This document shows positions 17,889 to 48,500 of a DNA stretch of 64,000 nucleotides, one piece after another (within the stretch, counting starts at the first letter, position 1; each line of letters begins with the position of its first letter). The notes under the pieces are model-generated. The model had not been told where the DNA came from and did no database searches. It saw nothing but the letters and a program-made list of their open reading frames with translations. The position numbers and the translations under genes were made by a program. Source of the stretch: Candidatus Bathyarchaeota archaeon (GTDB lineage Archaea > Thermoproteota > Bathyarchaeia > TCS64). The stretch spans positions 2,187-66,186 of the forward strand of contig JAFGHP010000091.1 in NCBI GenBank assembly GCA_016930055.1. The letters run 5' to 3'.

Positions 17889-17889
17889 C

Positions 17890-21501: not shown

Positions 21502-21507
21502 TGTACT

Positions 21508-22410: not shown

Positions 22411-22412
22411 AA

Positions 22413-24751: not shown

Positions 24752-24759
24752 GGATTAAA

Positions 24760-28777: not shown

Positions 28778-31777
28778 ATGAAACCTGTCCTAGTTATTGG
28801 CGGTGGCATCACTGGTATCCAGACTTCTTTGGATCTAGCAAATAGAGGAATTAAAGTTCACCTTATAGAAAAAACATCAAGTATAGGAGGAGTAATGTCC
28901 CAACTTGATAAAACTTTTCCTACAAACGATTGCTCAATGTGTATTCTAGCTCCCAAAATGATCGAGTGTTCCCGAAATGAAAACATAAAGATTCACACTA
29001 TGAGTGAAGTCATTGAAATAAAAGGGGAAGCAGGGGATTTTAAAGTAAAAATAATCGAACACCCTAGGTCTGTTGATGTCGAGAAATGCACTGGTTGCGG
29101 TATTTGTTCAGAGAAATGCCCCATTAAAGTAAGAAGCGAGTATCAATCTGGAACAGGTTATCGTAAAGCAATATATTTACCATTTCCACAAGCTGTTCCA
29201 CTTATCGCAACTATTGATAGAACTAATTGTTTATGGTTTAGTAAAGAGATTTGTCGAATATGTGAAAAATTTTGTCCATCTAAGGCAATTAATTATGATC
29301 AAGTAGAAACTATCTCTGAAATTGAAGTTGCTAGTATTGTTTTAGCACAAGGAGCTGAAGCTTTTAATCCAGAGGTATTAACTGAGTATGGTTATGGGGT
29401 TTATCCCAACGTAGTAACTTCTTTGGAATTTGAACGCATTATGAGTGCAACTGGTCCTTTTAATGGTCAAATCTTACGTTCAAGTGATAAAATTAAACCA
29501 AAAAAAATTGCTTTTTTACAATGTATTGGTAGCAGAGATAGTAGAGTAGGGAATTCGTATTGCAGTAGTGTTTGTTGTATGTATGCAATTAAAGAAGCAG
29601 TTATAGCTCAAGAACATGATCCTAATTTAGATACCACAATTTTCTTTATTGATATTAGGGCATTTGGTAAAGAATTTGAAGACTATTACACTCAAGCTGA
29701 AAAGGGAAATAAAATTAGATTTATAAGAAGTAGAATATCAAGTATCGAAGAAATTCCAGAAACAAAAAATCTTGAAATATCATATGAATCAAATGGAGAA
29801 ATTAAGAAAGAAATTTTTGATATGATAATTTTAAGCGTAGGTTTAGAACCTCCTAAAGAATTGAATAATTTTTCACTATCTATTGATTTAAAGTTAAATA
29901 AATATGGATTTGTACAAACAGAGAATTTTTCGCCAGTCGATACTTCATTACCAGGAATATATGTTGCTGGTGTTTTAAGCGGACCAAAAGATATTCCAGA
30001 TAGTATTTCTCAAGCATCAGCAGCAGCTGTAAGAGCTGCAAGTAATTTAAGGATAGAATATGAAGAAACTAATTATTCAATTTATCAAGAAAAAAATGTT
30101 GAAGATAAAATTCCTAGAATAGGTGTATTTGTTTGTCATTGTGGTACAAATATTGGTAGCGTTGTAGATGTCCCTAGTGTCGTTGAATATGTAAAAAATC
30201 TTCCAAATGTTATATACGCTGAAGAAAATTTATTCACATGCAGCCAAGACACGCAGAAAAAGATAATTCATTTAATTAAAGAACATGAACTGAACAGAAT
30301 TGTAGTAGCAAGTTGTTCACCAAGAACTCATGAAGCTCTTTTCCAAGCTACTTTACAGGAAGCAGGGTTAAATCCATATTTATTTGAAATGGCGAATATC
30401 CGAGATCAATGTAGCTGGGTACACATGCATGAACATGAGAAAGCCACTCAGAAAGCTAAAGATCTTGTAAGAATGGCAATATCTAAAGCTAGGTTATTAA
30501 AACCGTTAACAAAACCTGTAACAAATGTAACACAATCTGCTTTAGTAATTGGTGGAGGCATTAGTGGTATTACTGCTGCTCTGGAGATTGCTGACCAAGG
30601 TTATTTAGTCCATTTAGTAGAAAAAGAAGGTGAATTGGGCGGTAATTTTAAGAAAATAAAATATCTGCCTTCAGGTGATGATCCTGAAAAGTTCCTGAAA
30701 AATTTAAAATCACAAGTTAGTGAAAATAAAAATATAATAACGCATCTTAATTCAAAAATTAATAGTATTTTCGGTTATTTAGGAAATTTTGAATCTGTAA
30801 TCAGTAAAGATAAAGAAACAACCCGGATAAAACATGGCGTAGTTATTGTAGCAACGGGTGGTCTAGAATATAAACCCAAAGAATATCTATATGGTACCCC
30901 AGGTATTATAACCCAATTAGAATTTGAAGAATTATTAAGCAAAAGCTACAAACCAGAAAGCATTGTAATGATACAATGTGTGGGTAGCCGGTGTGAAGAA
31001 CGTAGTTATTGTAGTCGTATATGTTGTACAGGTGCAATAAGTAATGCTTTAAAAGCTAAGGAATTAAATCCTGATTCTGAAATATTTATTTTATTTAAAG
31101 ATATTAGAACCTATGGCTTCAAAGAAGATTATTATAGAGAAGCTGCAGAAAAGGGAATAATTTTCATTAGATATGATGACGAAAATAAACCAGAAGTAAG
31201 TAATGATGGTAAAATAAAAATTAATGTTTTAGATCCTGTACTTAAACAAAAACTAGTTATAAACCCTGAAGTATTAGTTTTAAGCTCAGCAATTATACCA
31301 CAAGAAGATTCAAAAGAATTATCAGGGATTTTAAAAGTGCCACTTAGTAAAGATGGCTTCTTTTTAGAAGCTCACATGAAGTTAAGGCCTCTTGATTTCG
31401 CTACTGAAGGAATATTTTTGTGTGGCCTTGCCCATGCACCAAAAACAATTGATGAATGTATTAGTCAAGCTCTTGGTGCTGCAGCTCGCTCCATAACAAT
31501 TCTAAGTAAAAAAGAAATTGAAACTGAAGGAGTCATAGCGATAGTAGATGAAAAAATTTGTTGTGGATGTCAATTATGTCTAAATGTCTGTGAATATAAT
31601 GCAATTGAGATTAGAAATATAGAGGGTAAAATGCGAAGCCATATTATTCCTGAAATTTGTAAAGGATGTGGAGTATGTGCTGCAACATGCCCGAGTGGAG
31701 CTATTACAATTGGGCATTTCACCGATGATGAGATTTTAAGTCAAATAAAAAATGCTTTCAAAGAGGTAATTGCATGA
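28778..31777 (+). CDS. hdrA: Tandem-duplicated HdrA-like flavoprotein of 999 aa.
   Basis: There are two FAD Rossmann motifs, LVIGGGITGIQT and LVIGGGISGITA. An internal HdrA N-domain (IGVFVCHCGTN) and ferredoxin boxes are present. Confidence 0.85.
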   Translation: MKPVLVIGGGITGIQTSLDLANRGIKVHLIEKTSSIGGVMSQLDKTFPTNDCSMCILAPKMIECSRNENIKIHTMSEVIEIKGEAGDFKVKIIEHPRSVDVEKCTGCGICSEKCPIKVRSEYQSGTGYRKAIYLPFPQAVPLIATIDRTNCLWFSKEICRICEKFCPSKAINYDQVETISEIEVASIVLAQGAEAFNPEVLTEYGYGVYPNVVTSLEFERIMSATGPFNGQILRSSDKIKPKKIAFLQCIGSRDSRVGNSYCSSVCCMYAIKEAVIAQEHDPNLDTTIFFIDIRAFGKEFEDYYTQAEKGNKIRFIRSRISSIEEIPETKNLEISYESNGEIKKEIFDMIILSVGLEPPKELNNFSLSIDLKLNKYGFVQTENFSPVDTSLPGIYVAGVLSGPKDIPDSISQASAAAVRAASNLRIEYEETNYSIYQEKNVEDKIPRIGVFVCHCGTNIGSVVDVPSVVEYVKNLPNVIYAEENLFTCSQDTQKKIIHLIKEHELNRIVVASCSPRTHEALFQATLQEAGLNPYLFEMANIRDQCSWVHMHEHEKATQKAKDLVRMAISKARLLKPLTKPVTNVTQSALVIGGGISGITAALEIADQGYLVHLVEKEGELGGNFKKIKYLPSGDDPEKFLKNLKSQVSENKNIITHLNSKINSIFGYLGNFESVISKDKETTRIKHGVVIVATGGLEYKPKEYLYGTPGIITQLEFEELLSKSYKPESIVMIQCVGSRCEERSYCSRICCTGAISNALKAKELNPDSEIFILFKDIRTYGFKEDYYREAAEKGIIFIRYDDENKPEVSNDGKIKINVLDPVLKQKLVINPEVLVLSSAIIPQEDSKELSGILKVPLSKDGFFLEAHMKLRPLDFATEGIFLCGLAHAPKTIDECISQALGAAARSITILSKKEIETEGVIAIVDEKICCGCQLCLNVCEYNAIEIRNIEGKMRSHIIPEICKGCGVCAATCPSGAITIGHFTDDEILSQIKNAFKEVIA

Positions 31778-32190
31778 CGGATTTTGAGCCAAAAATTATT
31801 GGTTTTTTATGCAATTGGTGTAGTTACGCTGGAGCAGATCTTGCAGGAGTAAGTAGGTTTCAATATCCACCAAATATGAGACAAATCAGAGTAATGTGTA
31901 GTGGACGAATTCATCCAAGTTTTATCCTTCAAGCTTTCAAAGAAGGAGCAGATGGAGTGCTTGTTGCTGGTTGCCATACACCAAACGATTGCCATTATAT
32001 TTCTGGAAATTTTAAAACAGAACGCCGTGTAGCTATTCTAAAAAAATTATTAGAACAATTAGGCTTAGAACCAGAAAGGCTTAGACTTGAATGGATTAGC
32101 GCGTCTGAAGGCGAAAAATTTTCCAAAACAGTATTAGAAATGACTAATGAGCTCCGAAAACTTGGACCAAGCCCAATCAAAGAGGAGTAA
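31774..32190 (+). CDS. mvhD: Methyl-viologen-reducing hydrogenase delta subunit.
   Basis: IIGFLCNWCSYAGADLAG...CSGRI...GCHTPNDCHY is the MvhD signature. Confidence 0.85.
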   Translation: MTDFEPKIIGFLCNWCSYAGADLAGVSRFQYPPNMRQIRVMCSGRIHPSFILQAFKEGADGVLVAGCHTPNDCHYISGNFKTERRVAILKKLLEQLGLEPERLRLEWISASEGEKFSKTVLEMTNELRKLGPSPIKEE

Positions 32191-32192
32191 AA

Positions 32193-32696
32193 ATGACTGA
32201 AATAATTTTTAATGAAGATACAAAACGTTTCAGAGATAGTATCCTAAAAATTGGTGGGGCTGAAAGGCTCATGTTATGTTATCAGTGTGGTACATGCACT
32301 AATGATTGCCCGGTAGCCAAACGTATTGAAGAGTTCCGTCCCAGAAATATTGCTAGATTAGCTATGTTTGGCCAGAAACAACAATTGTTTTCAAGCGATC
32401 TTTTGTGGCTTTGTGCAGGATGTTATACATGTTATGAACACTGTCCCCAAAAAGTACATGTTTCTGAGATAATATCAGCACTAAGAAGATTAGCATTTAT
32501 TGAAGGAAAAATACATCCAACAATAAAATCTCTGTTAACAGCATTATCGCGTTATGGTTATATTATGGAAATAGGAGAATTTGAAAATGAACTTAGAGAA
32601 GAAGAAAATTTACCACCAGCACCTGAACCTGCAATTAATGAAATCTCAACAATAATGGAAAAAACTGGAACATTAAAAAAAGTTGGAGGGAACTAA
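32193..32696 (+). CDS. hdrC: Heterodisulfide reductase subunit C.
   Basis: CYQCGTCTNDCP and CAGCYTCYEHCP are the two cluster motifs. Confidence 0.85.
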   Translation: MTEIIFNEDTKRFRDSILKIGGAERLMLCYQCGTCTNDCPVAKRIEEFRPRNIARLAMFGQKQQLFSSDLLWLCAGCYTCYEHCPQKVHVSEIISALRRLAFIEGKIHPTIKSLLTALSRYGYIMEIGEFENELREEENLPPAPEPAINEISTIMEKTGTLKKVGGN

Positions 32697-33567
32697 TTTT
32701 CTAAAGTATGCGTTTTTTGTAGGATGCACAACTCTTGGTCGTCTCCCTGGATACGAAAAATCTACTCGTAAACTTGCTGCAACACTTGGAATAGAATTGG
32801 TTGACATGCCTAATTCAAGTTGTTGTGGTACAACATATATGGAAGGAGTCGATGAATTAACTGCTTTAAGTTTAGCAGCAAGAAACATATGCATTGCAGA
32901 GGATATGGGCTTAAACATTTTAACAATATGTAATGGATGTACTGAAACTTTAACAAAAACTAATAAAATATTAAAAGAAAATCCTGAAAAATTAAAAAAA
33001 GTAAATGAAATACTTAAAGATACAGGAAGAGAATTTAAAGGAACAGTTGAAATAAAGCATCTATTAAGAATTTTAAAAGAAGACTATGGTTTAGAAAATT
33101 TAAAGAAAGCTATTGTTAAACCCTACAAAAGTCTAAAGGTAAGCACCCATTATGGATGCCATTTACTGAGACCATCAGATGTCATGAGTTATGATGATCC
33201 CAATCAACCAACTTCAATGGATGAAATCATTGAAATAACAGGGGCAAAAAGCGTTCAATATCCCGGAAAAATGGATTGCTGTGGAGGCCCGATTATGGGA
33301 ATAAGAGAAGACGTAACTTGGGCTATGGGACTAGAAAAGATTGAGGTTGTTAACAAATATGCCCAAGCACTGGTCACATCATGTCCCTTCTGTTTTATTT
33401 CCTATGAAAGAGCTCAATTGATGATTGACAACCAAAAAAAGTTACCAATTATACATCTCCCACAAATTTTGGGACTCAGCTTAGGTTTATCTGAAGAGGA
33501 TATAGGATTAAGGGATAACAAAATAGATTCTTCTTTTTTAAAAAATAATTTGGAGGCTCGAAAATAA
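32683..33567 (+). CDS. hdrB: Heterodisulfide reductase subunit B, with two CCG domains.
   Basis: The two repeats are FFVGC...SCCGT...CNGC and THYGCH...DCCGG...CPFCF. Confidence 0.85.
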   Translation: MEGTNFLKYAFFVGCTTLGRLPGYEKSTRKLAATLGIELVDMPNSSCCGTTYMEGVDELTALSLAARNICIAEDMGLNILTICNGCTETLTKTNKILKENPEKLKKVNEILKDTGREFKGTVEIKHLLRILKEDYGLENLKKAIVKPYKSLKVSTHYGCHLLRPSDVMSYDDPNQPTSMDEIIEITGAKSVQYPGKMDCCGGPIMGIREDVTWAMGLEKIEVVNKYAQALVTSCPFCFISYERAQLMIDNQKKLPIIHLPQILGLSLGLSEEDIGLRDNKIDSSFLKNNLEARK

Positions 33568-34532
33568 ATAAATTAAACTTTGGTTTTTACTGGGCTGCAA
33601 GTTGTGGAGGATGCGAAATCGCAGTTTTAGATATAGATGAAAAAATTCTTGAAATATTGGAGATAGCGGATATTGTTTTCTGGCCAGTTGCCATGGATAT
33701 CAAATATAAAGAAGTTGAAAATATGTTGGATGGTTACATTGATGTATGTTTCTTCAATGGAGCAATTCGAAATTCAGAACAAGAATATCTAGCAAAATTA
33801 TTGAGAAGGAAATCAAAAATCTTGATCGCTTTCGGAGCTTGTGCACAGTTAGGAGGAATCCCAGGATTAGCAAACATATTTAGTGCAGAAGAAATCTTCG
33901 AAACAATATATCATAGCACTCCTTCAACCAACAATACTTTAAAAATTGAACCGAATGAATCAACAAAAATTGTCGAAGGCATATTAGAGCTACCAACATT
34001 TTATGATGAAGTTAAACCTCTCGATAAAATTGTGCAAGTTGATTATTATATTCCAGGATGTCCACCACCACCTAAATTGATTATTCAAGCAGTAGAAGCA
34101 ATAAGATCGAATAAACTTCCTCCAAAAGGGAGTATTCTTGCACCAGAAATAGCGGTTTGTGATGAATGCCCTAGAAAAAAAGAAGATAAAAAAATTTCAG
34201 AGATTAAAAGGGTGTTAGATTTTGTACCAGATTCTGAAAAATGTCTTTTAGAACAGGGTATAATATGCATGGGACCAGCAACTAGGGGTGGATGCGATGC
34301 TAAATGTATTCAAGCAAACATGCCATGTACAGGATGTGGTGGACCTTGTCCAAACATAGAGGAGCAAGGAGCAGCAATGATTAGTGCTCTGAGTACGGTT
34401 TTAGGAATAGGAGAAGAAAAAGACGAAAATTATTCAGTTAATAATTTAATTTCGCAACTCAAGGATCCATTAGGAACTTTCTATAAGTATACTTTACCAT
34501 CATCAATAATTAAAAAAAGGTATAAAAAATGA
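33564..34532 (+). CDS. mvhG: [NiFe] hydrogenase small subunit of the F420-non-reducing Mvh type. The start codon appears to be ATA, so the coordinate is uncertain.
   Basis: The N-terminal NFGFYWAASCGGCEIAVLD box lies upstream of the TTG the ORF tool used. Distal cluster motifs CMGPATRGGCDAKC and CTGCGGPCP are present. Confidence 0.8.
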   Translation: MNKLNFGFYWAASCGGCEIAVLDIDEKILEILEIADIVFWPVAMDIKYKEVENMLDGYIDVCFFNGAIRNSEQEYLAKLLRRKSKILIAFGACAQLGGIPGLANIFSAEEIFETIYHSTPSTNNTLKIEPNESTKIVEGILELPTFYDEVKPLDKIVQVDYYIPGCPPPPKLIIQAVEAIRSNKLPPKGSILAPEIAVCDECPRKKEDKKISEIKRVLDFVPDSEKCLLEQGIICMGPATRGGCDAKCIQANMPCTGCGGPCPNIEEQGAAMISALSTVLGIGEEKDENYSVNNLISQLKDPLGTFYKYTLPSSIIKKRYKK

Positions 34533-35986
34533 AAACAATTACAATTGATCCAATTACTAGGCTTGAAGGCCATGGAAAAATAACCATCTTCCTAAATAAA
34601 GAAGGAGATGTTGAGAACGCGTTTCTTCAGATTCCGGAATTACGTGGATTCGAAAAATTCTGTGAAGGAAGGCGTGCTGAGGATATGCCAATAATCACTC
34701 CAAGAATATGTGGTGTATGTCCTGTAGCTCATCATTATGCTGCAACTAAGGCGCTTGACGCTGCATTCGAAGTGAAACCAACTGAAACCGCTAAGAAACT
34801 TAGGGAATTAATGTATATGGGTTATATTATTTATGATCATATTCTTCATTTCTATTTTCTTGGAGGACCAGACTTTATTGTTGAACCAGGTTCCCCTGCT
34901 ACTGAAAGAAATGTCTTTGGTGTATTTAAAAAAGTTGGATTAGATGTCGGTAAAGAAGTTATTAAACACCGTGCATATGGACAAAAAATTACTGAAATTA
35001 TTGGAGGTAAAGCAACTCACCCAACTTGTGGGATCCCAGGAGGTATAAGTAAAGGTTTAACAGAAGATGAACGCATCAAAATTGAAGACATGGCAAAAAG
35101 CAGCATCAATTTTTCTAAATTTACCTTAGAAATTTTTGATAAAATTATTTTAAAAAATTCTAATTATCTAGATTTAATAAATGATAATTCCTTTAAATTA
35201 GATTCATACAACATGGGTTTAGTAGATTCTTATAATAATGTCAATTTTTATGAAGGCGTTCTTCGAGTAACGGATCAAAAAGATCATGAAATTAGTAGAT
35301 TTAAAGCAGAAGATTACCTAAATCATATTGAAGAGCATGTAGAGTCTTGGACATATAGCAAGTTTGTTTATTTAAAAAAAATTGGTTGGAAAGGGCTTAT
35401 TGCTGGAACTGAAAGTGGTGTATATAGAGTAGGTCCACTAGGAAGATTAAATGTAGCAGAAGGTTTTGCTACTCCTCTAGCAAATAATGAGTATAAGCGG
35501 ATGTTCAAAACATTTGGCGTAAAACCTATACAATCAACTTTAGCGTTTCATTGGGCTCGAATAATAGAGCTGCTTTATGCCTCAGAAAGAGCTTTAGAAT
35601 TGGTTCTAGATAAAAACATTACAAATACAGATTTAAAGAATCCAATAGGTAAACCAAGTGAAGGAGTAGGAGTTGTGGAAGCTGCAAGGGGTGTCTTAAT
35701 CCATCACTATAAACTTGACAATGAAGCGATCATTAAAAAAGCTAACCTCATTGTAGCGACAACAAACAACTACGCTGATATTTGTATTAGTATACGTGAT
35801 GCAGCTAGGAAAGTTATTCAAAAAGGGAAGGTTTCTGAGGGACTTTTAAATCAAATAGAAATGGCTTTCAGAGCATATGATCCATGTTTTGGATGTAGTA
35901 CTCATAGTCTACCAGGTAATAGTCCCCTTACTGTAATGATATATAATTCTGAGAAAAAATTAATTAAAGAATTAAAGAGGAATTAG
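34529..35986 (+). CDS. mvhA: [NiFe] hydrogenase large subunit.
   Basis: The N-terminal RICGVCPVAHH and the C-terminal DPCFGCSTHS are the Ni-Fe ligand boxes. A C-terminal tail is present for protease cleavage. Confidence 0.9.
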   Translation: MKTITIDPITRLEGHGKITIFLNKEGDVENAFLQIPELRGFEKFCEGRRAEDMPIITPRICGVCPVAHHYAATKALDAAFEVKPTETAKKLRELMYMGYIIYDHILHFYFLGGPDFIVEPGSPATERNVFGVFKKVGLDVGKEVIKHRAYGQKITEIIGGKATHPTCGIPGGISKGLTEDERIKIEDMAKSSINFSKFTLEIFDKIILKNSNYLDLINDNSFKLDSYNMGLVDSYNNVNFYEGVLRVTDQKDHEISRFKAEDYLNHIEEHVESWTYSKFVYLKKIGWKGLIAGTESGVYRVGPLGRLNVAEGFATPLANNEYKRMFKTFGVKPIQSTLAFHWARIIELLYASERALELVLDKNITNTDLKNPIGKPSEGVGVVEAARGVLIHHYKLDNEAIIKKANLIVATTNNYADICISIRDAARKVIQKGKVSEGLLNQIEMAFRAYDPCFGCSTHSLPGNSPLTVMIYNSEKKLIKELKRN

Positions 35987-35989
35987 TTT

Positions 35990-36430
35990 TTGCGAGGACT
36001 AGTTATTGGAATAGGAAACATTCTAAGAACAGATGATGGTGTTGGATTACATACTTTAAAAAAAATAAAGAAGATTCTACCAGACTTTGATACCGTTGAT
36101 GTAGGTTTAGGGAGTATAGAAATTCTTGATCATATACAGGGTTATGATTTGATTTTCATTATTGATGCAATTGAAACTGGTGGAAAACCGGGTACAGTGT
36201 ATAAAATAGATCTTTCAAAAAATCAAGTTCCCCCAGAAATAAATTATAGTCATGGAATCGATATAGTTACAACATTAAAATTAGGGCAATTATTTGTAGA
36301 TAAACTCCCAAAAATAATTTTGTTAGCTGTAGAAGCTGAAGATGTTTTAACATTCAGTGAAGAATTAACACCGAAAGTAAAAAAAGCAATCAAAGAAATT
36401 ATAAAAGAAATTAATAATTATAGTAAATAA
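35990..36430 (+). CDS. Hydrogenase maturation endopeptidase of the HycI/FrhD/HyaD family.
   Basis: GIGNILRTDDGVG fits, the size fits, and it sits directly after the large subunit. TTG start. Confidence 0.75.
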   Translation: MRGLVIGIGNILRTDDGVGLHTLKKIKKILPDFDTVDVGLGSIEILDHIQGYDLIFIIDAIETGGKPGTVYKIDLSKNQVPPEINYSHGIDIVTTLKLGQLFVDKLPKIILLAVEAEDVLTFSEELTPKVKKAIKEIIKEINNYSK

Positions 36431-36538: not shown

Positions 36539-36970
36539 ATGGTAAGAATCGAAGGCAATGAATTCCCTGATGATCTTTATTATCACAGAGAACATATGTG
36601 GATTAAAAATGAAGGTTCAATGATTCGAGTCGGATACAATGATTGGGCTCAACAAACCGCCGGAAAAATTTTAAGTCTTAAAGCCAGAAAAGCTGGAGCA
36701 AATATTGATGCAGGAAAAACATTAGGCAGCATTGAAAGTGGAAAATGGGTAGGAAGTTTAAAACTACCAGTTTCTGGTGAGTTAGTACAAATAAATCAAG
36801 AAGTACTTAAAGATCCTTCACTGATTAACAAAGATCCTTACGGTGAAGGTTGGGTTGCATTAATAAAACCCTCAAAATTAGCTGAGGAAATAAAAAACCT
36901 AATTCCTGGAAAAGATAAAGCAACCTTAGAGGCATGGCTTAAAGAAGAAAAAGTGAAGAATAAGCAATAG
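36539..36970 (+). CDS. GcvH-like lipoyl-carrier protein.
   Basis: Aligns along its length with glycine-cleavage H protein. The lipoyl-Lys region is SIESGKWVGSLKLPVSGELV, and the C-terminus contains DPYGEGW. Confidence 0.8.
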   Translation: MVRIEGNEFPDDLYYHREHMWIKNEGSMIRVGYNDWAQQTAGKILSLKARKAGANIDAGKTLGSIESGKWVGSLKLPVSGELVQINQEVLKDPSLINKDPYGEGWVALIKPSKLAEEIKNLIPGKDKATLEAWLKEEKVKNKQ

Positions 36971-37056
36971 GTTGGATAACTTTAGAAGAATGGCGCTTAC
37001 TTGATCTAGGTTATGTTGAGCCCTTTATTGCTCAAACATTCTATGAAGCAGTTGCT

Positions 37057-38061
37057 ATGACTGTGGAGAAAGAGGAGAGTCCAAACACACTAATTTTGTT
37101 ACTACCAGCATCCCCTTACGCATGTATTGGATACCATCAAGATCTTGAAAAAGAAATAGATTTACAATATTTAAAGAAGAAACAAATTCCAGTTATTAGA
37201 AGAAGCCAAGGAGGAGGAGCTACCTACTTAGATAGTAACCAGATTTTTTATCAAATAATCTCTAAAAAAAGTCAGGTTATCCCAAAAAAAATTAATGAAT
37301 TGTTCGAAAAAATGTTAAAAGTAACAGTAGAGACCTATCGAGCCCTTGGAGTACCTGCAGAGTTTAAACCTTTAAATGATGTAATTGTTAACGGAAAAAA
37401 AATTTCAGGGAATGGAGCCAGCAGTCATTCCTCCACAACGATTCTTGTTGGGAATATTATTATAGATTTAAATTATGAGCAAATGGCGCGGGTTCTAAAA
37501 GTATCTGATGAGAAATTTAGAGATAAAATAGCTAAAAGTATGGTGGAGTGGGTTACTAGTTTAAAGCGTGAATTAGATGTAATTCCTTCAGTTGAAATAA
37601 TTAAAGAAAAATATAAGGAAATGTTCCAAAAACAATTAGGTCTTAAATTAATCAAAGCTAGTCCTACAAATGAAGAGTGGAAAATTTTTAATGAACAGAT
37701 TCTACCTCAGAATCTTAGTTATGAATGGTTATATATGGAGCCCCCAATTTCCTTAAAAAGTAGAAGCATAAAAATAGCTCATGAGGTAAAAATAGTCGAA
37801 GTCGAGTATAAAGTTGCGAAACTTATACGAATAAGAGCTGAAATTTTTGGGGAATATATTACGAATATTCAAATACGTGGAGATTTTTTTGTTGTACCTA
37901 AAGAGTCAATAAAAATTCTTGAAGAAAAACTAGTTGGGTGTAAAATCGATGATATGAATATTAAAAAAGTTATTGAAGATTTTTATAAACACAATAATGT
38001 TGATACTCCCGGGATCACTTCAAGAGATTTTATTCAAGCAATTTTAAAAATAAATAAGTGA
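37057..38061 (+). CDS. lplA: Lipoate-protein ligase A-family protein, with catalytic and C-terminal domains.
   Basis: RRSQGGGATYLD is the BPL/LPL catalytic motif. Confidence 0.8.
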   Translation: MTVEKEESPNTLILLLPASPYACIGYHQDLEKEIDLQYLKKKQIPVIRRSQGGGATYLDSNQIFYQIISKKSQVIPKKINELFEKMLKVTVETYRALGVPAEFKPLNDVIVNGKKISGNGASSHSSTTILVGNIIIDLNYEQMARVLKVSDEKFRDKIAKSMVEWVTSLKRELDVIPSVEIIKEKYKEMFQKQLGLKLIKASPTNEEWKIFNEQILPQNLSYEWLYMEPPISLKSRSIKIAHEVKIVEVEYKVAKLIRIRAEIFGEYITNIQIRGDFFVVPKESIKILEEKLVGCKIDDMNIKKVIEDFYKHNNVDTPGITSRDFIQAILKINK

Positions 38062-38143: not shown

Positions 38144-38662
38144 ATGTCAAGCGTTCAAATGATTCTAATTAAAACAGAACTTGGAGATATTAAAGCAGAA
38201 ATAAACCTTGAAAAAGCCCCAATCACATCTACAAATTTCTTACGATATGTAGATAACAGACTCTATGATGGTACAACTTTTTTTAGGGCAGTTACAAAAG
38301 AAGCGTCTTTCCCAAACCAAAATGTACCAATCGAAGTTATTCAAAGTGGTCAAGTACCCAAAGAAAAAGAATATCCACCTATTGAACATGAGACCACAGA
38401 AAAAACAGGTCTAAAACATGTTGAAGGCGCAATTTCAATGTCTAGAGGAAAACCAGGTAGTGCAACGTCAAGTTTCTTTTTCTGTTTAAGGGACGAACCT
38501 GAGTTAGATTATGGTGGACAAAGAAATGCTGATGGGCAAGGTTTTTCAGCTTTCGGAAAGATAGTTTCTGGAATAGAAGTAGCTAAAAAAATACATGAAC
38601 AACCTAGGGAAGGGCAGAGATTAAAGCTACCAATAGGTATAATTTCTATTTCAAGAATCTAA
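38144..38662 (+). CDS. Cyclophilin-type peptidyl-prolyl isomerase, divergent.
   Basis: The blocks KAPITSTNFLRYV...YDGTTFFRAV, GAISMSRG and FSAFGKIVSG match cyclophilin. Confidence 0.7.
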   Translation: MSSVQMILIKTELGDIKAEINLEKAPITSTNFLRYVDNRLYDGTTFFRAVTKEASFPNQNVPIEVIQSGQVPKEKEYPPIEHETTEKTGLKHVEGAISMSRGKPGSATSSFFFCLRDEPELDYGGQRNADGQGFSAFGKIVSGIEVAKKIHEQPREGQRLKLPIGIISISRI

Positions 38663-39114
38663 TTTTTGATTAAATCTTTTATTTTTCCGATCTTTTCAAT
38701 TTTTTCTGGTTTATTATTAAAAATTAAATGTAGATAAATTTCTGTATCAATATGGTTTGGTAATGAGAATAGAAATTCTTTATCACCGAAGTATATTGCT
38801 TCAATTACTAAAGGGAGTTCTCGTTTAAAGATGACTTCTCGAAAATTTTCTGTTCCAAATATTAAACCTCCACTTATATGACAATAAAGATGTAATTTAT
38901 AGTAATTGTCATCTTGGATAAATTCAGCTAAAACCTCATCACGCATTAATCGTGTATATAATCCTGAAATTTGTTTATTATTATATTCTGACGCTATTGT
39001 TAGATATAAGTCGCCACTTAAGTCAGAATGTGTTAAAGTATATTTACGATTAGCGTTAAAACCAAGTTCTTTATTTATTGTTACATGAAGTTTTTGTGGG
39101 TTTAATCTATTCAA
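38659..39114 (-). CDS. Hypothetical protein.
   Basis: ORF only. Confidence 0.3.
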   Translation of the reverse strand: MNRLNPQKLHVTINKELGFNANRKYTLTHSDLSGDLYLTIASEYNNKQISGLYTRLMRDEVLAEFIQDDNYYKLHLYCHISGGLIFGTENFREVIFKRELPLVIEAIYFGDKEFLFSLPNHIDTEIYLHLIFNNKPEKIEKIGKIKDLIKN

Positions 39115-39176: not shown

Positions 39177-41033
39177 TTATATTCTGAGTTTTTTTAGAGC
39201 TTCATCAACGTCTTCAAGTCCTAAAGATTTTAATTCAGTTGAAGTAGGTATACCTTTTTCATCCCAGCCCATAGCTTCATATGCGTCTTTTCTTTCAATC
39301 ATCAATTGGTCTCTATTAGGGGCAGAGCCTTTAAAGGGTCCACTAGGTAATGGGATATACCATCTAGGGGGATTATCATCGTGGATTTCTGGTTCCCAGA
39401 ATAAATCTGGTCCACCTAGCAATAGAACGGCGCGTTGTATCTGTATTATTCTTCTACCATTGATATTAGTCCATTCTTCTGCATTCATATCCCAACCTGT
39501 TACTGCTTTATAGAAGTCCCATTCAATATTTCTTAATCCTGAGGGCCCAGATATTGTGCAATAAACTAAGGAGTCTCCTATTGCGCTTCTGGCTTCACTC
39601 ATAGGAGGCCTAGGGATTGAAGTATGATCACCACCCTGAACTGAAAGTGCGTAGCCCAGATAAGGGAAGTGAGATCCGGTTCTAATTCCATGTGCACCAA
39701 CTTCTATTCCTTTATATTGAATAGCATATTGCAGTGCATCAACATTCTTCATCTTTGATATTTCTATAGCTGCCCTGTAAGTTCCTTCTGCTAAGATATT
39801 ACCAATTCCTCTACGTTCAACGATAAGTTTAACTAAATCTGTCATTGCTTGAGGATCCCCCCATCTGGGTTCAATCCCATCAAAATCTTCTTTAGTTAAT
39901 ATACCCCTCTGGAAAAGTTCTGCAGCAAAACCAATTGTGTTAGCTGAGTTTATGCCACTCATACCAACATCATCTATTAAACTAGACATATATACAACTC
40001 CATCAGGATCAAAAATCCCTAAGTTTGTACCACAATATGCTTCAAGTTCATAATCAGGACTATCTGTAATTGCACCTTTCAAGGGTCCAACTTTTACTAC
40101 ACTTATTTTCATACAGGATTTACAGCACCCATAATCACTCCAAAAACGCTTTACCCAGTTTCTAGTTTCATATTGTACTATCCCCATACTTTTTTTGTTG
40201 TGCCATTCTTCCTGCCAGTTTCTAACTGGTTCAGCACTACTTTGGGCACCTGTAGAATACCCCATCGAAGCAGTTCCCCAGTTACGTTCTTGGGGATTAG
40301 AAAATTGAGTACTCCAACATTTATGAATAAGTTCAGTAAGCATTTTCTGATCATATACATCAGGTAATTTACCAGTTCCTTTAGCTACAAGCGCTTTAAG
40401 ATTTTTTGAGCCCATTACTGCACCATAACCACCGTAGCCACAAGCGTGAGTCCATTTCTGCATAATTGCTGCGTTTCTAACTAAATTTTCCCCGGCTTGA
40501 CCAATATATAGTAGAGCAGGTTCTTTCCATAAACCATAGTTTGGTTTTCTTTTCTGAAGAAGCTCTCTTACTTCTTTATTTACTTCTTTTATAGTATTTT
40601 TTCCATCTAACCCCCATAGTTTTGAGGCATCTCTAATTTCAACGCCGTCATCAGTTACGAGAAGATATACCGGCGTCTCAGATTTACCTTTAACAATAAT
40701 ACCATCATAACCAGCACATTTCAGTTCCATTGGAAATTCACCCGCAGCAGTAGAACCAACAATTCCATTCGAAAGAGGAGATTTTCCTGTGCAACAAATC
40801 CTCATACCATAAATATATCCAGTTAAAGGCCCTGTAAGTGCAAGTAGTAAATTATCTGGACCCAAGGGATCAATGGTCTGCCATTTTGATCCTAAACGAT
40901 CCCATAATATTTTTACACCTAGACCTCGTCCACCAACATATTCTTTTAAAATTTTTTCATTTATATGTAAATCAGAAATTTTACTTATCGAAAGATCTAC
41001 TTCAGCAATTTTTCCAGTGTATCCATATGTCAT
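39177..41033 (-). CDS. aor: Tungsten-containing aldehyde:ferredoxin oxidoreductase-family protein.
   Basis: The N-terminus YGYTGKIAEVDLS...GGRGLGVKIL closely matches AOR. 618 aa. Confidence 0.85.
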   Translation of the reverse strand: MTYGYTGKIAEVDLSISKISDLHINEKILKEYVGGRGLGVKILWDRLGSKWQTIDPLGPDNLLLALTGPLTGYIYGMRICCTGKSPLSNGIVGSTAAGEFPMELKCAGYDGIIVKGKSETPVYLLVTDDGVEIRDASKLWGLDGKNTIKEVNKEVRELLQKRKPNYGLWKEPALLYIGQAGENLVRNAAIMQKWTHACGYGGYGAVMGSKNLKALVAKGTGKLPDVYDQKMLTELIHKCWSTQFSNPQERNWGTASMGYSTGAQSSAEPVRNWQEEWHNKKSMGIVQYETRNWVKRFWSDYGCCKSCMKISVVKVGPLKGAITDSPDYELEAYCGTNLGIFDPDGVVYMSSLIDDVGMSGINSANTIGFAAELFQRGILTKEDFDGIEPRWGDPQAMTDLVKLIVERRGIGNILAEGTYRAAIEISKMKNVDALQYAIQYKGIEVGAHGIRTGSHFPYLGYALSVQGGDHTSIPRPPMSEARSAIGDSLVYCTISGPSGLRNIEWDFYKAVTGWDMNAEEWTNINGRRIIQIQRAVLLLGGPDLFWEPEIHDDNPPRWYIPLPSGPFKGSAPNRDQLMIERKDAYEAMGWDEKGIPTSTELKSLGLEDVDEALKKLRI

Positions 41034-41560
41034 TTTGTTAATTCCTCTCCCTTTTCTCCGTAAAGGTTTATAGCAATATTTTTGGTAAGTTCTTCTGGAT
41101 TGATAGAATAAAGATCATAATTAATTGATGTACTTCTAGTTCCCATCATAATGCATCCATAGCTACATGCTTTAACACATTCAGGTTCTCCACCACAAAG
41201 ATCACAAATCACTATATGGTTTTTTTCTGGATGCATGTGTGGGACTTGTCCAGGGCATGCTTTTATACAAGCACCACAAGCTATGCATTTTTCTTCATCT
41301 ACAATAACTGCTCCCGTTTTCTCATCAACCGATAAAGCTTTTGTAGGGCAAACTCCAACACAGGGATAATCACTACATTGGGTGCATACATGTGGAACTT
41401 CTGCACCTGGTACCAACATGAACACTCTAATCCTGGAGGACTCGGGCCAGATACGTCCCTCGTGTTTAAGACTGCAAGCTATTTCACATAGTCTACAACC
41501 ACTACACTTTAAATAATCTCTAACAATCCAAGGTTTCTGAATAGGCATTGGTCTGCTCAA
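41030..41560 (-). CDS. 4Fe-4S poly-ferredoxin-like electron-transfer subunit, AorA-type partner of AOR.
   Basis: Four Cys boxes are present: CSGCRLCEIAC, CTQCSDYPCVGVCP, CIACGACIKACP and CDLCGG..CVKAC. It overlaps aor by 4 nt. Confidence 0.75.
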   Translation of the reverse strand: MSRPMPIQKPWIVRDYLKCSGCRLCEIACSLKHEGRIWPESSRIRVFMLVPGAEVPHVCTQCSDYPCVGVCPTKALSVDEKTGAVIVDEEKCIACGACIKACPGQVPHMHPEKNHIVICDLCGGEPECVKACSYGCIMMGTRSTSINYDLYSINPEELTKNIAINLYGEKGEELTK

Positions 41561-43532: not shown

Positions 43533-44261
43533 ATGACTATAATTCATAAAAAGCATAGAGGTATTACATCTCTTGTAATTATAGTTTTTATGTTAGTGTT
43601 TTTATCTTCTGCTTCAGCTGTCTACCTATTTACTGATGTTTTTAAACCTAAAAATGAAGAAATGACTGGTTCATCATTAGATTCTATTAAAGTTTTAAAT
43701 GATGCTTTCAATGATCTTGAAAAAAGTGGATGTACTATTGTTGAAGTGGAATCAATGCCAAGTGGTTCAATAGAATTGTTAAATTCATATTCAGATTTTA
43801 AAAATTCGCTAAAAACACAAACAGTATATTGTTTTGCCGAATCAAATAGATGTTCCATTTTTTTTGAAAAAGATAATAAAATATTTGTATGGTCTCCTCA
43901 AAAATGGGAAAAAATAAAGTTAATTAAAGAAAGTTGCGACCTTCAGACTCCAGGTTGGTTAATAACACTAGAAATTAAAAATTCCGGTAACGGTCCCATA
44001 CAAATTTCAAAAATTTATGTAGCAGGCGACGAAATTGCTGGTATTAATTTTAATACTGATAATTATGTCCCACTTTCTACTTCTTGTACTATTAAAAATA
44101 ATGTGAGTTTAGAACCTAATGAAAAAATTATTTTAGAAATTAGAGTAAGTAATTATTATAAATATCTCAAAATTGGCTCAGTGTGTGAAATAAAAATATA
44201 TACAATATCAGGTTACTCTATTAAAAGAATAATAAATTTTGTATCAAATAATAATAACTAA
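43533..44261 (+). CDS. Putative type IV pilin-like surface protein with a class III signal-peptide-like N-terminus.
   Basis: N-terminal basic stretch HKKHRG followed by a hydrophobic helix ITSLVIIVFMLVF. Confidence 0.35.
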   Translation: MTIIHKKHRGITSLVIIVFMLVFLSSASAVYLFTDVFKPKNEEMTGSSLDSIKVLNDAFNDLEKSGCTIVEVESMPSGSIELLNSYSDFKNSLKTQTVYCFAESNRCSIFFEKDNKIFVWSPQKWEKIKLIKESCDLQTPGWLITLEIKNSGNGPIQISKIYVAGDEIAGINFNTDNYVPLSTSCTIKNNVSLEPNEKIILEIRVSNYYKYLKIGSVCEIKIYTISGYSIKRIINFVSNNNN

Positions 44262-44337
44262 TCATTCTTATGAAATTTCATAATATATATTTTCTATCCA
44301 TAATAGGTTAATTAAAGGATTTATTAAATTTTCATTA

Positions 44338-45504
44338 ATGAGACAGAAATTATTGTTAGTAATCGGATTATTGCTTGGAGTTCTATTAACAATCGCCTGC
44401 TCTAATTTTATTGATACTAATGTTTTTAATTTTAATGGGAAAAAAGTAAATGAACTCACAGAAATTAATGAGATTTTAACAAATGAATTAAATTATCTTA
44501 GAGAACAATATGAAGAACTTTTAGAAAATTATACTCAACTCCAGTTAAAATATTATATGAACATTAGTCAAGAGGATAAAAGTTTAATAAATAATGAATT
44601 AATTTATGAAGGAAAAGGCATTAATAGAAATTATTCTTGGTATTTTAATTATAATAAATGGACATTATCATTGTCAATTCCTGAAGAATTATATATTTAT
44701 TATAAAACTCTATCAAGAACCCCTTCCTCAGATTATTCCATATATGTTACACATCCTTATGATGATGTATATATTGACTTATTGTTAGTAAAATTAAATG
44801 AAATATCTGTTTTAAATGGGTTTTCTGATTTTAATAAAATTGGTTTAGTAATTTCATTTATTCAAAGCCTTCAATATACATCTGATTCAATATCTACTGG
44901 ATATGATGAATACCCACGTTACCCAATAGAGACTTTAGTAGATTATGGTGGAGACTGTGAGGATACATCAATTTTAGCAGCAGCACTTTTTAAAGCTCTG
45001 GGAAAAGAAGTCGTTTTATTAATGTTGCCAAATCATCTTGCAGTGGGAATTGCTGAAGTAACAAGTCAAGGATATTATTACCAATATAATGGAAAAGACT
45101 ACTATTATCTGGAAACAACTGGTGAAGGCTGGGATATTGGAGAATTACCTGAAGAATATCAAGAGTCTACAGCTAAAATTTTTGAACTTCTTCCTATACC
45201 TGTTATTTTTCATACTTGGGTTTCAACTTGGGAATTCTCAAAAATAATACTTACAATAACAGTTGAAAACTTAGGAACAGCTATAGCTCAAAATTATTAT
45301 GTTGAAGCAGGCTTTGATGCAGGTAATGATTCTTGGTGGAATTCTCAGAAAAGCCAGTATTTTAATATAACAATTGATGGAAAAATTAAATTAACATTAG
45401 TTCTTCAACCACCTAAAAATCAATATACAAGACTAATTGTACAGATTTTAAATTCAGAGAGTAAATGTGTTGATATCAGTTACTCTAAATGGTTTACTAC
45501 TTAA
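44338..45504 (+). CDS. Transglutaminase-like (papain-fold) domain lipoprotein.
   Basis: Signal peptide with a lipobox-like LLTIAC. DYGGDCEDTS carries the Cys of the core, and PNHLAVG the His. Confidence 0.6.
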   Translation: MRQKLLLVIGLLLGVLLTIACSNFIDTNVFNFNGKKVNELTEINEILTNELNYLREQYEELLENYTQLQLKYYMNISQEDKSLINNELIYEGKGINRNYSWYFNYNKWTLSLSIPEELYIYYKTLSRTPSSDYSIYVTHPYDDVYIDLLLVKLNEISVLNGFSDFNKIGLVISFIQSLQYTSDSISTGYDEYPRYPIETLVDYGGDCEDTSILAAALFKALGKEVVLLMLPNHLAVGIAEVTSQGYYYQYNGKDYYYLETTGEGWDIGELPEEYQESTAKIFELLPIPVIFHTWVSTWEFSKIILTITVENLGTAIAQNYYVEAGFDAGNDSWWNSQKSQYFNITIDGKIKLTLVLQPPKNQYTRLIVQILNSESKCVDISYSKWFTT

Positions 45505-45519
45505 TCTAAATCATTTTGT

Positions 45520-48500
45520 TTAAGTTAAAACAAATAAATCATTATTAAAAATTATTTTACCCTCACTTATCATATCTTCGAGAATATTTGAAATTGTTTC
45601 AAATGTTTTCTGAGTTTTTTTTATTTTATAAATTTTTAGCGTTTGTTGAATTAATGAGTTTATACCTAATCCTAAACTGTGTTCTAATATTTTTTCAATA
45701 GCTATCATAATTTCTTCAGGTGCAATATACTCAATTTTACGAATTGTATTTTTTCTTCCCTCTTTGGGGATTCTAAGTTTAGCTATTTTATTTTTTGATG
45801 CCCACAAAAAATCTTCACTTTTAAAGATTTTATCTTTTTTTATTAACTCGTTAAGAGTATTATAAAAAATATTTTTATGTTTAAAAGTTACTGGTTTGAC
45901 TTTTAAAAGATTATTTGAACGTTTATAAGCTAATTCTTGATGTATTGGTTCTTCTACTTCAACTAATTTTGGTAATAATTGTAAAATTTCTTGTTTATAA
46001 AAGCGTTCATAAAGGGTTTTTTGATCTTTTTTTATTTTATTAAATGTAATTTTTGGAGTAATATCAGTTATAACATATTCTACTGCTCCTGGTAGTTTAG
46101 AACTTTCAAGTTCTGTAATTATTTTATAATTGATTTTATTTATTGTTTCTTTTTTGTTTTTACTAATATTTAATTTTCTGATATTTCTTGATTCTTCAGC
46201 TTGTTTTAATGCTTGAGAAAGACGATCTATTTCAGAAGAATGTCTTATAACCCATTCTGGTGACCAAATTCTATAAATGTTCCAACCCATATTTTCCAAT
46301 ATTTGTATTCTTAACCGATCTCTATCTCTTACAGTTGGAATGGATGAATAGTATTCTCCATCAATTAAAATTCCTAAAATGTATTTTTCTGGCTCTTCTT
46401 TAATTTTCACACCAATATCTATTTTAAGTCTACTTTCACCAATATTTGTAACAGCTACATATCCAAGTTTCCGTATCTCTTCTACAACTTCTTTTTCAAT
46501 ATCTGTCACGTCTTCGGGTTTAGATATTATTGCATTGAACCTTTTTTGTAGTTGAGTCTCAGCATATTGTAAATATTCATGTAAGCATTTTATACCTAAA
46601 GAATTTGTAGAATTAACATTAATATCGCTTGATTTAATTGAACTAACAAGAATTACTTTTTCTTTTGCTCGAGTAATTGCTACATTTAAGCGACGTTCAC
46701 CACCTTCTTTGTTTAATGGACCAAAATTAAGGGTCATAATTTTATTTTTATCGTAACCGTATCCTACGCTAATTATCATTACATCTCTTTCATCACCTTG
46801 AACATTCTCAAGATTCTTAACGAAAAAACCTTGTAACCTATCTTCTTGAATGAATTTTCCATAGTCACCATTATTTTTTAAACGGTTTTCAATTTCATCT
46901 TTAACACAGTTCATCTGGTTTATGCTAAATGTTACAACTCCTAGAGACTTATTAGGAGTTTTTTTAAAGTGATTGAACACTAAATCTGCGACAACCTCAG
47001 CTTCAGTGAAATTAGTTCTAGTTCCTCCTCGATCATATAAGCCATTTTGAACATGAACAAAGTCTATACCTAAATCTTCTCCTTGATGTATTGCTGAAGG
47101 AAAGAGAATTAATTTTCCATCATAAAATTTGTTATTTGAAAAAGAAATTAAAGAATCATGTTTGCTTCGATAATGCCATTGTAACATTTTAGTTGGTAAG
47201 CCAATTGACATACACTCATCAAGTACACTATCATAGACACCGATATCTTCACTATTTTCATCCCAATCATTATCTGTATCAGCTACATATTGGAAGAATG
47301 GGGTAGGAGGAAGTTGTTTATTATCTCCAGCAACTATTAGACAGTCTCCTCTATAAATTGCTCCAACAGAGTCTTCAGTGAATATTTGTGATGCTTCATC
47401 AAATATGACTAAATCAAAATGTAATCTTTCGGGAATAACGAATTGACTTACACTTATTGGACTCATTAATAAACAGGGTTTTAATTTTCGTATAAGATTA
47501 GGTATTTTATCAAAAAGATGACGTATAGGCATTTGTCTCCTTTTCTTTGCAGCTTCTCTCAGGAGAATGCTGATTTCAGAATCTGATGCTTCTACAAAAA
47601 TACCCTGAGGTTTATTTGTATTAGCAATTTCAATAATCTTATTTGGAGATGTTTCAATTAAGACTTTATCAAGATTAATAAAATCCTGAACAATATAATT
47701 GTGATCTTTAACTCTAAAATTTTTTAAATTAATATCGTCTTCAAGAAATTGTGTAAGCAAACCATTAAAAATTGATTTCTTAAAAACATCAACAATAATA
47801 TTTTTATCAATTTTTTTCTCGTAAATCTGTGTTAAAAACTGATCAAATCCTTCATCACATAGTTTTTTGGATGTATCATTAAAATCAACCCAGTATTGAA
47901 GATCGTCTATTCTTGATAAAAATTGATCTGCCACATTAAGAACTTCATATAAATACAAATCATTTGGATTATTATTCCAAAATTGTTTTGTAAAACGATA
48001 ATTTAATTCGTTAATTGATTGTTTAATTAATTTTAGATTCTGTTCTAATTTCAATTGGATCCTATTTAATGAAGGATCTGTAACTTTTTGTATTAGTTCA
48101 TTTGAAGGAGGAGAATCTAATAATAATAAAAAGCTGCGGGTCCAATCAATGCTTTCAATAACTTTTGTCCAATCTGTAGAAATTCCGTGATAAAGATTTC
48201 CATAAATTTGCTTTAAACTAAACGTTTTTTTAGCTTCATCAGATTCAAAGTCTTGTATTTTTTCTGTTTTTTTGAGGTCATCAATCAATTGGTTAAAACT
48301 TGAAGGTAAATCAGATATTTTAGTAATTAAAGCTGGCTGACTTGTATTATTTAAAATCTTAAGAAGCAGATTAAGTTCTGTTGCCCATTTTTCTAATTCA
48401 TATAGGCTTGCTTCAGTTAAGGGGGTATTGGTATTAGGGATTTTTATTGGTAATAATTCTTTTAGATTTTTTTTATCAGCCATCCAAGAATTCAGATTAC

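Follow-up and report, generated by a model that had tools for sequence, protein, structure and literature searches.

Many non-methanogens that make neither coenzyme M (CoM) nor coenzyme B (CoB), Bathyarchaeia and Asgard archaea among them, carry and highly express soluble heterodisulfide reductase HdrABC, mostly together with the hydrogenase module MvhADG. What disulfide does the enzyme reduce in such organisms? The literature has repeatedly called it unknown, and for Bathyarchaeia it has been stated to be unclear (Loh 2021, PMC7886697). We address the question with a 64-kb stretch of DNA (64,000 nucleotides; hereafter the window) from a Candidatus Bathyarchaeota metagenome-assembled genome (MAG), in which genes for a GcvH-like protein, here called the carrier, and for a lipoate-protein ligase follow an mvh-hdr cluster. 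A preliminary sequence-only reading of the window had attributed it to an Asgard host, which the source shows to be mistaken, and had proposed, by analogy with the sHdr systems of sulfur oxidisers, that the lipoylated carrier is the substrate of Mvh-Hdr. On balance, and with some reserve, we favour a reading in which lipoamide bound to the carrier serves HdrB-type enzymes as a dithiol/disulfide shuttle, in the place that CoM-S-S-CoB occupies in methanogens.

The first step is to establish what kind of protein the carrier is. In a profile search the Pfam GCV_H model (PF01597) covers its residues 13-127 with 114 bits, the DPYGEGW block is present, and K69, within ESGK, aligns with the lipoyl lysine of GcvH from Thermus and M. 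tuberculosis (ESVK/ESTK), which bears out the 143-residue GcvH-like protein with a lipoyl-lysine region that had been picked out from the letters alone. The protein is NCBI MBN1683606.1, and its named close homologues all come from Bathyarchaeota/Bathyarchaeia; among the 120 homologues listed, ESGKWVG is found in 119, and 118 are, like the window carrier, devoid of cysteine. Databases annotate the carrier as GcvH, and it just reaches the cut-off of the subfamily model NF002270 (117.2 against 117 bits), as would be expected of an ordinary glycine-cleavage H protein that lies with a housekeeping ligase near mvh-hdr by inherited synteny, with no functional tie. We consider that reading quite unlikely, and the equivalog model for GcvH, TIGR00527, already tells against it: the carrier falls below the cut-off (91.2 against 115.85 bits) and practically matches the 91.1 of an LbpA2-like protein encoded at a bacterial sHdr-type locus, the canonical GcvH of an Atribacteria locus with gcvT 3 kb away (L042) scoring 134.5. 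A search of the PDB at E <= 0.001 returned 13 matches, all labelled GcvH, and no LbpA-like chain.

The context of the lysine divides the family. In an alignment of 193 GcvH homologues from 173 loci with the window carrier and E. coli GcvH as reference, two classes can be told apart. The canonical class has E-x-V-K-[AT]-x-S-D and contains the proteins of E. coli, Bacteroides and L042; the same signature occurs in 116 of the 120 proteins found by a search seeded with the canonical archaeal GcvH of L053, which returned only DPANN archaea. The second, which we term the KW class, has E-[ST]-[GA]-K-W-[VA]-G and unites the window carrier with both kinds of lipoate-binding protein, LbpA1-like and LbpA2-like, that bacterial sHdr-type loci encode. 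In the broader form E-[ST]-[GAS]-K-W-[VAIL]-G this signature, which was derived in the present analysis and not taken from the literature, is carried by 54 of 55 KW-class representatives, including the LbpA-like proteins of L022-L034 (the exception has Q replacing the leading E), and by none of 52 canonical ones. The bacterial loci were called sHdr-type from gene order and domain matches, not from named reference proteins; their arrangement is hdrC-hdrA-hdrC-hdrB accompanied by a pair of genes for lipoate-binding proteins and one for an Lpl(AB) ligase (L022, L023, L027, L028, L030, L034, L064, L109, L114). Three Candidatus Methanoperedens loci (L031, L032, L035) have tandem GcvH-like genes, one of the KW class (ESAKWVG) and one divergent (ETIKAVS), with no CCG gene within 5 kb.

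In the E. coli H protein, Glu12, His13, Glu14, Ser67, Asp68 and Tyr70 hold the aminomethyl-lipoyl arm (Zhang 2020, PMC7733448). Canonical representatives have Glu14 in 45 of 47 cases, Ser67 in 43 and Asp68 in 42, whereas neither Glu14 nor Asp68 is found in any of the 55 KW-class proteins and Ser67 is replaced by Gly in all of them. The window carrier retains Glu12 and His13, with Met for Glu14, Gly for Ser67, Ser for Asp68 and Lys for Tyr70. The lack of Glu14, Ser67 and Asp68 from the aminomethyl-arm cavity argues against an ordinary H protein, as does the signature held in common with the LbpA-like proteins of sHdr-type loci, since characterised LbpA, which is essential for sHdr, cannot replace GcvH (Cao 2018, eLife, PMC6067878). 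Compared with canonical GcvH, the carrier thus has the same fold, length, lipoyl-lysine hairpin and DPYGEGW block, but has GKWVG where canonical proteins have VK[AT]xSD, Met for Glu14, a score below the equivalog cut-off and no linked gcvT or gcvP. Signature, cavity residues, TIGR00527 score and genomic context together support a carrier of an LbpA-like class and not a canonical GcvH.

Does the company of Hdr genes mean anything? Loci were retrieved by carrier similarity and not by context, most contexts coming from exact-protein look-ups, and Bacteroides GcvH proteins, which made up most of the matches listed in genome and metagenome scans (shared peptide KDPYGEGW) beside few close relatives, served as canonical controls. 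After dereplication at 90% identity (107 homologues, 55 KW-class and 52 canonical), 30 of the KW-class genes but 2 of the canonical ones have a CCG-domain or Mvh gene no more than 5 kb away (Fisher p = 2.5e-9, a significance overstated by relatedness); of these two, one belongs to an actinobacterial Hdr locus, where it is the third copy of the carrier. Adjacency to hdr recurs where the carrier is 68-74% identical (L007, L166-168, L170/171, L174-177, L092); judged by gene neighbourhoods, it exceeds chance. The survey of gcvH-lplA beside hdr that the sequence-only reading had called for therefore comes out in its favour, with the adjacency conserved in relatives and in several independent architectures.

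Within the Bathyarchaeia clade we compared 17 distinct lineages (56-80% identity, at least 4 kb of upstream sequence each). The plus-strand gene order of the window, hdrA-mvhD-hdrC-hdrB-mvhG-mvhA-hycI followed by gcvH and lplA, is found in five (the window, L007, L166, L170, L174), and in five others a DsrM-like cytochrome b (NarI) and a DsrK/HdrD-like CCG protein are encoded directly upstream (L003, L005, L090, L091, L178). A CCG protein is encoded nearby in L172, with a GlcD-like flavoprotein too, and in L011, while L094 has HdrA/MvhD-malic enzyme-hycI-gcvH. Genes for HMG-CoA reductase and a Trm112-like protein flank the carrier in mvh-hdr, DsrMK-like and Hdr-less versions alike (L002, L003, L170, L174, L178), so that different CCG enzymes have come to lie beside the same carrier gene, which points to selection rather than inherited synteny. 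The gcvH-lplA pairing is kept in most relatives, and the hycI-gcvH-lplA trio in L094 and L166 even though the mvh genes are displaced. In support of the link, a mere 23-30 nt separate hycI from gcvH in L170 and L174.

Outside this clade, L098 and L100 (43-45% identity) carry malic enzyme-FumA-FumB-GcvH(KW)-LplA-HdrC-HdrB-HdrA-FeS-TfrA-like-HdrA on a single strand with overlaps or 3-nt gaps. Fumarase lies immediately upstream of a KW-class GcvH gene in both, in L015 (a MAG labelled Atribacterota) and in L019 (Desulfarculaceae), and in L098, L100 and L015 a homologue of malic enzyme comes just before fumarase-GcvH; L159 has HdrA-HdrC-HdrB-GcvH. In all, KW-class genes of archaea and bacteria have Hdr neighbours in no fewer than five unrelated architectures, a recurrence that an ordinary H protein kept in place by synteny would not explain.

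Nor do the neighbourhoods point to glycine cleavage. No gcvT lies near a KW-class gene in 181 loci, of which the first 173 were probed with an E. coli GcvT sequence, the sole match being in the canonical locus L042, and domain searches of open reading frames (ORFs) of at least 110 residues in the window found no GCV_T, GDC-P, Lpd, LipA/LipS, TusA or DsrE, which upholds the earlier statement that glycine-cleavage P and T genes are missing from it. Some Bathyarchaeia orders are nevertheless reported to possess glycine cleavage as well as the reductive glycine pathway (Hou 2023), which favours an ordinary H protein and also a second alternative, in which the carrier would serve glycine cleavage or synthase, or another lipoate-dependent enzyme, and the Hdr modules would substitute for the L protein (dihydrolipoamide dehydrogenase). 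Hdr would then re-oxidise dihydrolipoyl-H protein to H2 or fumarate, or reduce lipoyl-H protein with H2 for reductive glycine synthesis. The lack of lpd within the window fits such a role, the -290 mV of lipoamide suits H2 evolution by ferredoxin confurcation better than H2 uptake, and HdrB and HdrA encoded near LipS genes have been read as likely lipoyl dithiolane oxidoreductases (Neti 2022, PMC9585515). Set against this are the class-wide replacement of the aminomethyl-cavity residues, the absence of linked gcvT or gcvP at the related loci, and the recurrence, as partners, of fumarase, malic enzyme and a TfrA-like protein rather than C1 or glycine enzymes. We hold the substitution of the L protein to be unlikely, though worth keeping in view.

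An adjacent lipoate-protein ligase was rightly recognised at the outset: LplA-B_cat (PF21948) matches with 145 bits from profile position 17 and Lip_prot_lig_C (PF10437) with 33.9 bits, the sequence carries RRSQGGGATYLD (RRxxGGG motif) and NGKKISGNGAS (active-site lysine region), and TIGR00545 gives 160 against a cut-off of 280. Homologues are 361-367 residues long, and the in-frame stretch before the ATG at 37057 codes for a conserved N terminus (WRLLDLG...AQTFYEAVA) but offers no ATG, GTG or TTG. The open frame extends back to 36964 and includes, at 36967-69, an ATA that overlaps the TAG with which gcvH ends (ATAG), so that the two genes would overlap by 4 nt; in L166 and L007 an ATA stands exactly at the position of the ATG of other relatives. 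Very probably, then, lplA starts at this ATA. A parallel is found in mvhG, which likewise has no canonical start and whose ATA at 33564 overlaps the hdrB stop (ATAA, 33564-33567), aligns with Met1 of L170 MvhG (tblastn) and is preceded by GGAGG 7 nt upstream. First-canonical-start ORF calls are hence too short by 31 codons for mvhG and 30 for lplA, and, of the two gaps reported earlier, the 108 nt before gcvH hold while the 86 nt before lplA are an artefact of the first-ATG call. Given the ATAG overlap, the conserved N terminus and the mvhG parallel, gcvH and lplA are almost certainly translationally coupled. Their pairing would also be expected if an ordinary GcvH were the sole lipoylated protein of the cell.

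Table 1. Features of the window discussed in the text. Positions count from the first nucleotide of the window; scores are in bits.
Feature	Position	Strand	Remarks
B12-binding radical SAM protein	17319-19332	-	BchE/HpnJ-like; BchE 253, below cut-off; next to a PEMT-family methyltransferase
Class I fumarase alpha and beta	19381-20846	-	PF05681, PF05683
Second Hdr module: HdrC1, HdrB1, Fe-S protein, TfrA-like fumarate-reductase flavoprotein, HdrA-MvhD fusion	21082-27132	+	
Malic enzyme	27205-28542	+	PF00390, PF03949
HdrA (999 aa, duplicated HdrA2-like)	28778-31777	+	NCBIfam HdrA2 1025 (cut-off 1100)
HdrA, MvhD, HdrC2, HdrB2	28778-33567	+	VhuD 144; HdrC 103 (cut-off 160); HdrB 283 (cut-off 345)
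MvhG and MvhA, small and large subunits of group 3c [NiFe] hydrogenase	33564-35986	+	VhuG 199; VhuA 400
[NiFe]-hydrogenase maturation endopeptidase (HycI/HyaD family)	35990-36430	+	PF01750; TIGR00072 113.9
LbpA-class (KW-class) lipoyl carrier	36539-36970	+	143 aa, GCV_H fold, lipoyl lysine K69 within ESGKWVG, 0 Cys
Lipoate-protein ligase, fused Lpl(AB) type	36967-38061	+	Probable ATA start; ORF finder ATG 37057 (334 aa)
Staygreen-family protein	38659-39114	-	PF12638, Mg-dechelatase-like
Aldehyde:ferredoxin oxidoreductase and Fe-S partner	39177-41560		
Two ORFs	43533-45504		No Pfam match
Low-GC region	44000-52000		GC 25-29%
DUF4011/AAA_11/AAA_12/MTES_1575 helicase-nuclease	45520-51096	-	1858 aa
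RNA polymerase subunit A	58508-62368	-	1286 aa; Rpb1 domains 1-5

Upstream of the carrier all six subunits of MvhADG-HdrABC are present, with mvhG complete if started at its ATA, and HdrB2 has two complete CCG motifs, C-x31-CC-x34-C-x2-C and C-x39-CC-x33-C-x2-C. The position of the carrier and ligase genes directly after mvh-hdr and the hydrogenase protease (which ends at 36430), on the same strand, is as first described. Neither an Rfam scan nor a promoter/terminator scan with bacterial models, applied to an archaeal host, yielded anything usable.

The place of the carrier behind a hydrogenase protease raises a further alternative, namely a role in hydrogenase maturation, by analogy with the aminomethyl-lipoyl-H protein that donates the dithiomethylamine ligand of [FeFe]-hydrogenase. 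There is a published precedent for an H protein in [FeFe]-hydrogenase maturation, and hycI, gcvH and lplA stay together in L094 and L166, where mvhA is not directly adjacent. The hydrogenase here is a [NiFe] enzyme, without such a ligand, KW-class genes also adjoin hydrogenase-free DsrMK-like and TfrA-Hdr clusters (L003, L005, L098), and the aminomethyl cavity is lost; we judge a maturation role very improbable indeed.

A second Hdr module precedes the Mvh-Hdr cluster in the window. Its HdrB1 has the full double CCG cysteine set, and its flavoprotein (23099-24751) has TfrA as best match (NF004900, 313 bits against a cut-off of 718), L-aspartate oxidase models scoring alike. The functions of TfrB appear spread over 21082-23102, and fumarase is adjacent. 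Across 19.4-38.1 kb the window holds homologues of the entire L098 gene set, and the genes of the second module have their counterparts in L098 and L100 at 43-60% identity, downstream of GcvH-LplA in one same-strand operon-like array.

We propose the following scheme for how the two modules might be joined, in which the lipoylation, the reaction of HdrB with lipoamide, the direction of flow and any bifurcation are what we infer from gene content, carrier class, neighbourhoods and CCG motifs. The ligase would lipoylate the carrier at K69, and subunits of the HdrB type (CCG, noncubane Fe-S) would take the bound lipoamide as their substrate, switching it between its disulfide and dithiol forms. 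MvhAG would oxidise H2, with electrons passing via MvhD and HdrA to HdrC2B2 and reducing lipoyl-GcvH. The module of HdrB1C1, Fe-S protein and TfrA-like flavoprotein could then re-oxidise dihydrolipoyl-GcvH and reduce fumarate supplied by malic enzyme and fumarase. The two HdrA flavoproteins are candidate sites of flavin-based bifurcation to ferredoxin.

Several observations weigh against this proposal, and some of them bear on the class assignment itself. In a neighbour-joining tree from which the motif columns were left out, all 39 KW representatives fall on the same side, together with four interlopers, each a companion copy within an Hdr or Lpl locus, and the split between KW and canonical sequences has a classical bootstrap of 12% and a transfer bootstrap of 0.91. 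Outside the motif the carrier is 39% identical to canonical GcvH and 40% to LbpA2-like proteins, and one KW-class protein, that of L098, passes the TIGR00527 cut-off (128 bits). Tree and overall identity separate the classes poorly, so that the assignment rests on signature positions and context; deep nodes between LbpA and GcvH were likewise not resolved by Cao 2018 (PMC6067878). The comparison of GcvH and LbpA clades that had been suggested therefore groups the KW representatives, but with low classical support. The two cysteines, one near each terminus, that mark LbpA in that study are missing from the carrier. At the level of the locus, four of the 17 Bathyarchaeia-clade lineages have no Hdr gene nearby (L002, L008, L087, L181), as an ordinary H protein would allow, and the 108-nt spacer between hycI and gcvH is AT-rich and could house a separate gcvH-lplA promoter. 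Furthermore, the neighbourhoods favour the TfrA-like/HdrBC/HdrA fumarate-reductase module as the partner of the carrier at least as strongly as Mvh-Hdr.

The energetics add to these reservations. With textbook potentials of -414 mV for H2, about -500 mV for ferredoxin and about +30 mV for fumarate, and the literature-quoted -290 mV for lipoamide, the calculated yield of 2 H2 with oxidised ferredoxin and lipoamide is only about -7 kJ/mol at 1 bar H2, and that of electron transfer from dihydrolipoamide to fumarate about -62 kJ/mol. As an acceptor in bifurcation, lipoamide (E0' about -290 mV) is far inferior to CoM-S-S-CoB. The small yield on lipoamide and the large one on fumarate suggest that the energy-yielding, possibly bifurcating step may sit in the HdrA/MvhD-TfrA-like complex, with the Mvh-Hdr reaction reversible or reversed. 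Where examined, a canonical placement of the carrier by phylogeny was not obtained and its adjacency to hdr is conserved, so that the shuttle still agrees with both lines of comparison. What endures of the sequence-only reading is a lipoyl carrier of the LbpA-like class with a conserved link to Hdr; the system, with no sulfurtransferase genes beside the carrier, is not sHdr, and the TfrA-like module is implicated at least equally with Mvh-Hdr.

How far does the likeness to the sulfur oxidisers go? The sHdr systems of sulfur oxidisers are known to employ LbpA together with ligases of its own (Cao 2018; Tanabe et al. 2023, PLoS Biol). As there, the gene for a lipoate-binding protein of GcvH fold is here accompanied by genes for Hdr-like CCG proteins and for a dedicated ligase of the Lpl(AB) type, and in both systems the protein has the E-[ST]-G-K-W-[VA]-G signature and has lost the cavity residues of GcvH. 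It would be conceivable, therefore, that the dihydrolipoyl arm carries sulfane sulfur and that H2 serves Mvh-Hdr or DsrMK-like complexes as the reductant for polysulfide, S0 or organic persulfides, or else that these complexes oxidise reduced sulfur. Besides the signature held in common with LbpA1/2-like proteins, the pairing of the carrier with DsrM/DsrK-like proteins in some relatives speaks for this, the substrate of DsrK-type enzymes being protein-bound sulfur (DsrC). The carrier, however, is without cysteine, whereas the hallmark of LbpA is two strictly conserved cysteines, proposed to bind sulfur and absent from GcvH, although some archaeal LbpAs lack them too (Cao 2018, PMC6067878). Moreover, the 64-kb window has no TusA, DsrE or rhodanese genes and no LbpA1/LbpA2 pair, its Hdr is methanogen-type HdrABC with MvhADG (DsrMK-like or TfrA-linked in relatives) and an HdrA of 999 residues in place of the short sHdrA, its host is an anaerobic archaeon, and a sulfur role would leave the fumarate-pathway neighbours unexplained. 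We regard such a role as distinctly unlikely and prefer a plain dithiol/disulfide shuttle to one engaged in sulfur oxidation; signature, cavity loss and score are thus LbpA-like, but the locus is not sHdr.

The proposed shuttle can also be set beside other Hdr systems. In the Ehe cluster of Culexarchaeia, likewise non-methanogenic TACK archaea, GcvH is co-located with HdrB, SdhA and HdrA2B2C2 and was suggested to coordinate an unknown disulfide (Kohtz 2022, ISME Commun, PMC9723716). That cluster is centred on a membrane-bound group 4 hydrogenase and CdhA, in contrast to the soluble Mvh-HdrABC and TfrA-like module described here, and the report contained no sequence-class analysis, ligase linkage or cross-lineage survey, which are presented here. 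With methanogen MvhADG-HdrABC and TfrAB the window has in common an H2-driven Hdr, a putative fumarate reductase with a thiol-oxidising CCG subunit and, as proposed, a thiol/disulfide couple between them, but there is no mcr in the 64 kb, the Hdr and Tfr scores all lie below equivalog cut-offs, and the proposed lipoamide shuttle would have an E0' about 150 mV lower than CoM-S-S-CoB. In the DsrMK(JOP)-DsrC system of sulfate reducers, too, the small sulfur redox group is borne by a protein and is the target of a CCG enzyme of the HdrD/DsrK type, and in the five DsrMK-like relatives the carrier gene directly follows the DsrM/DsrK-like genes; the group differs, being a lipoyl-lysine arm on a GCV_H fold in the carrier and two C-terminal cysteines in DsrC. 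The literature searched contained no prior account of the link between the carrier and Mvh-HdrABC and DsrMK-like complexes in Bathyarchaeia, of the KW signature and cavity loss that separate such carriers from GcvH, or of the recurrent partnership with fumarase, malic enzyme and a TfrA-like protein.

Some features elsewhere in the window deserve mention in their own right. A B12-binding radical SAM protein encoded beside a PEMT-family methyltransferase is not LipS-like. A Staygreen-family gene, here in an archaeon, lies beside a cyclophilin gene and is adjoined by genes for aldehyde:ferredoxin oxidoreductase and its Fe-S partner. The region of low GC content, with the two ORFs that have no Pfam match and the large helicase-nuclease, may be a mobile or defence island. 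Many archaea have RNA polymerase subunit A divided into A' and A''; in the window a single ORF covers all five Rpb1 domains, and the subunit is apparently unsplit (A' and A'' fused).

For the biology of these archaea, the carrier provides a concrete and genetically linked candidate for the disulfide of Hdr in non-methanogens, open to test in vitro, and a proposed lipoamide-mediated link from H2 oxidation to fumarate reduction. The KW signature separates such carriers from true GcvH, with which current automatic annotation merges them, and a 'glycine cleavage H protein' listed in a metabolic reconstruction for one of these lineages may therefore mislead. More speculatively, and with considerable doubt, one may ask whether protein-bound lipoamide is a general thiol/disulfide currency of Hdr in non-methanogenic anaerobes, used here in a soluble H2:fumarate pathway with at most two bifurcation sites. 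Were this so, the KW carriers would form a widespread family reaching from Bathyarchaeia, Culexarchaeia, Altiarchaeota and Methanoperedens to Desulfarculaceae and MAGs labelled Atribacterota, the LbpA of sulfur oxidisers would be one specialised branch of it, and lipoamide might be an Hdr substrate that predates CoM and CoB.

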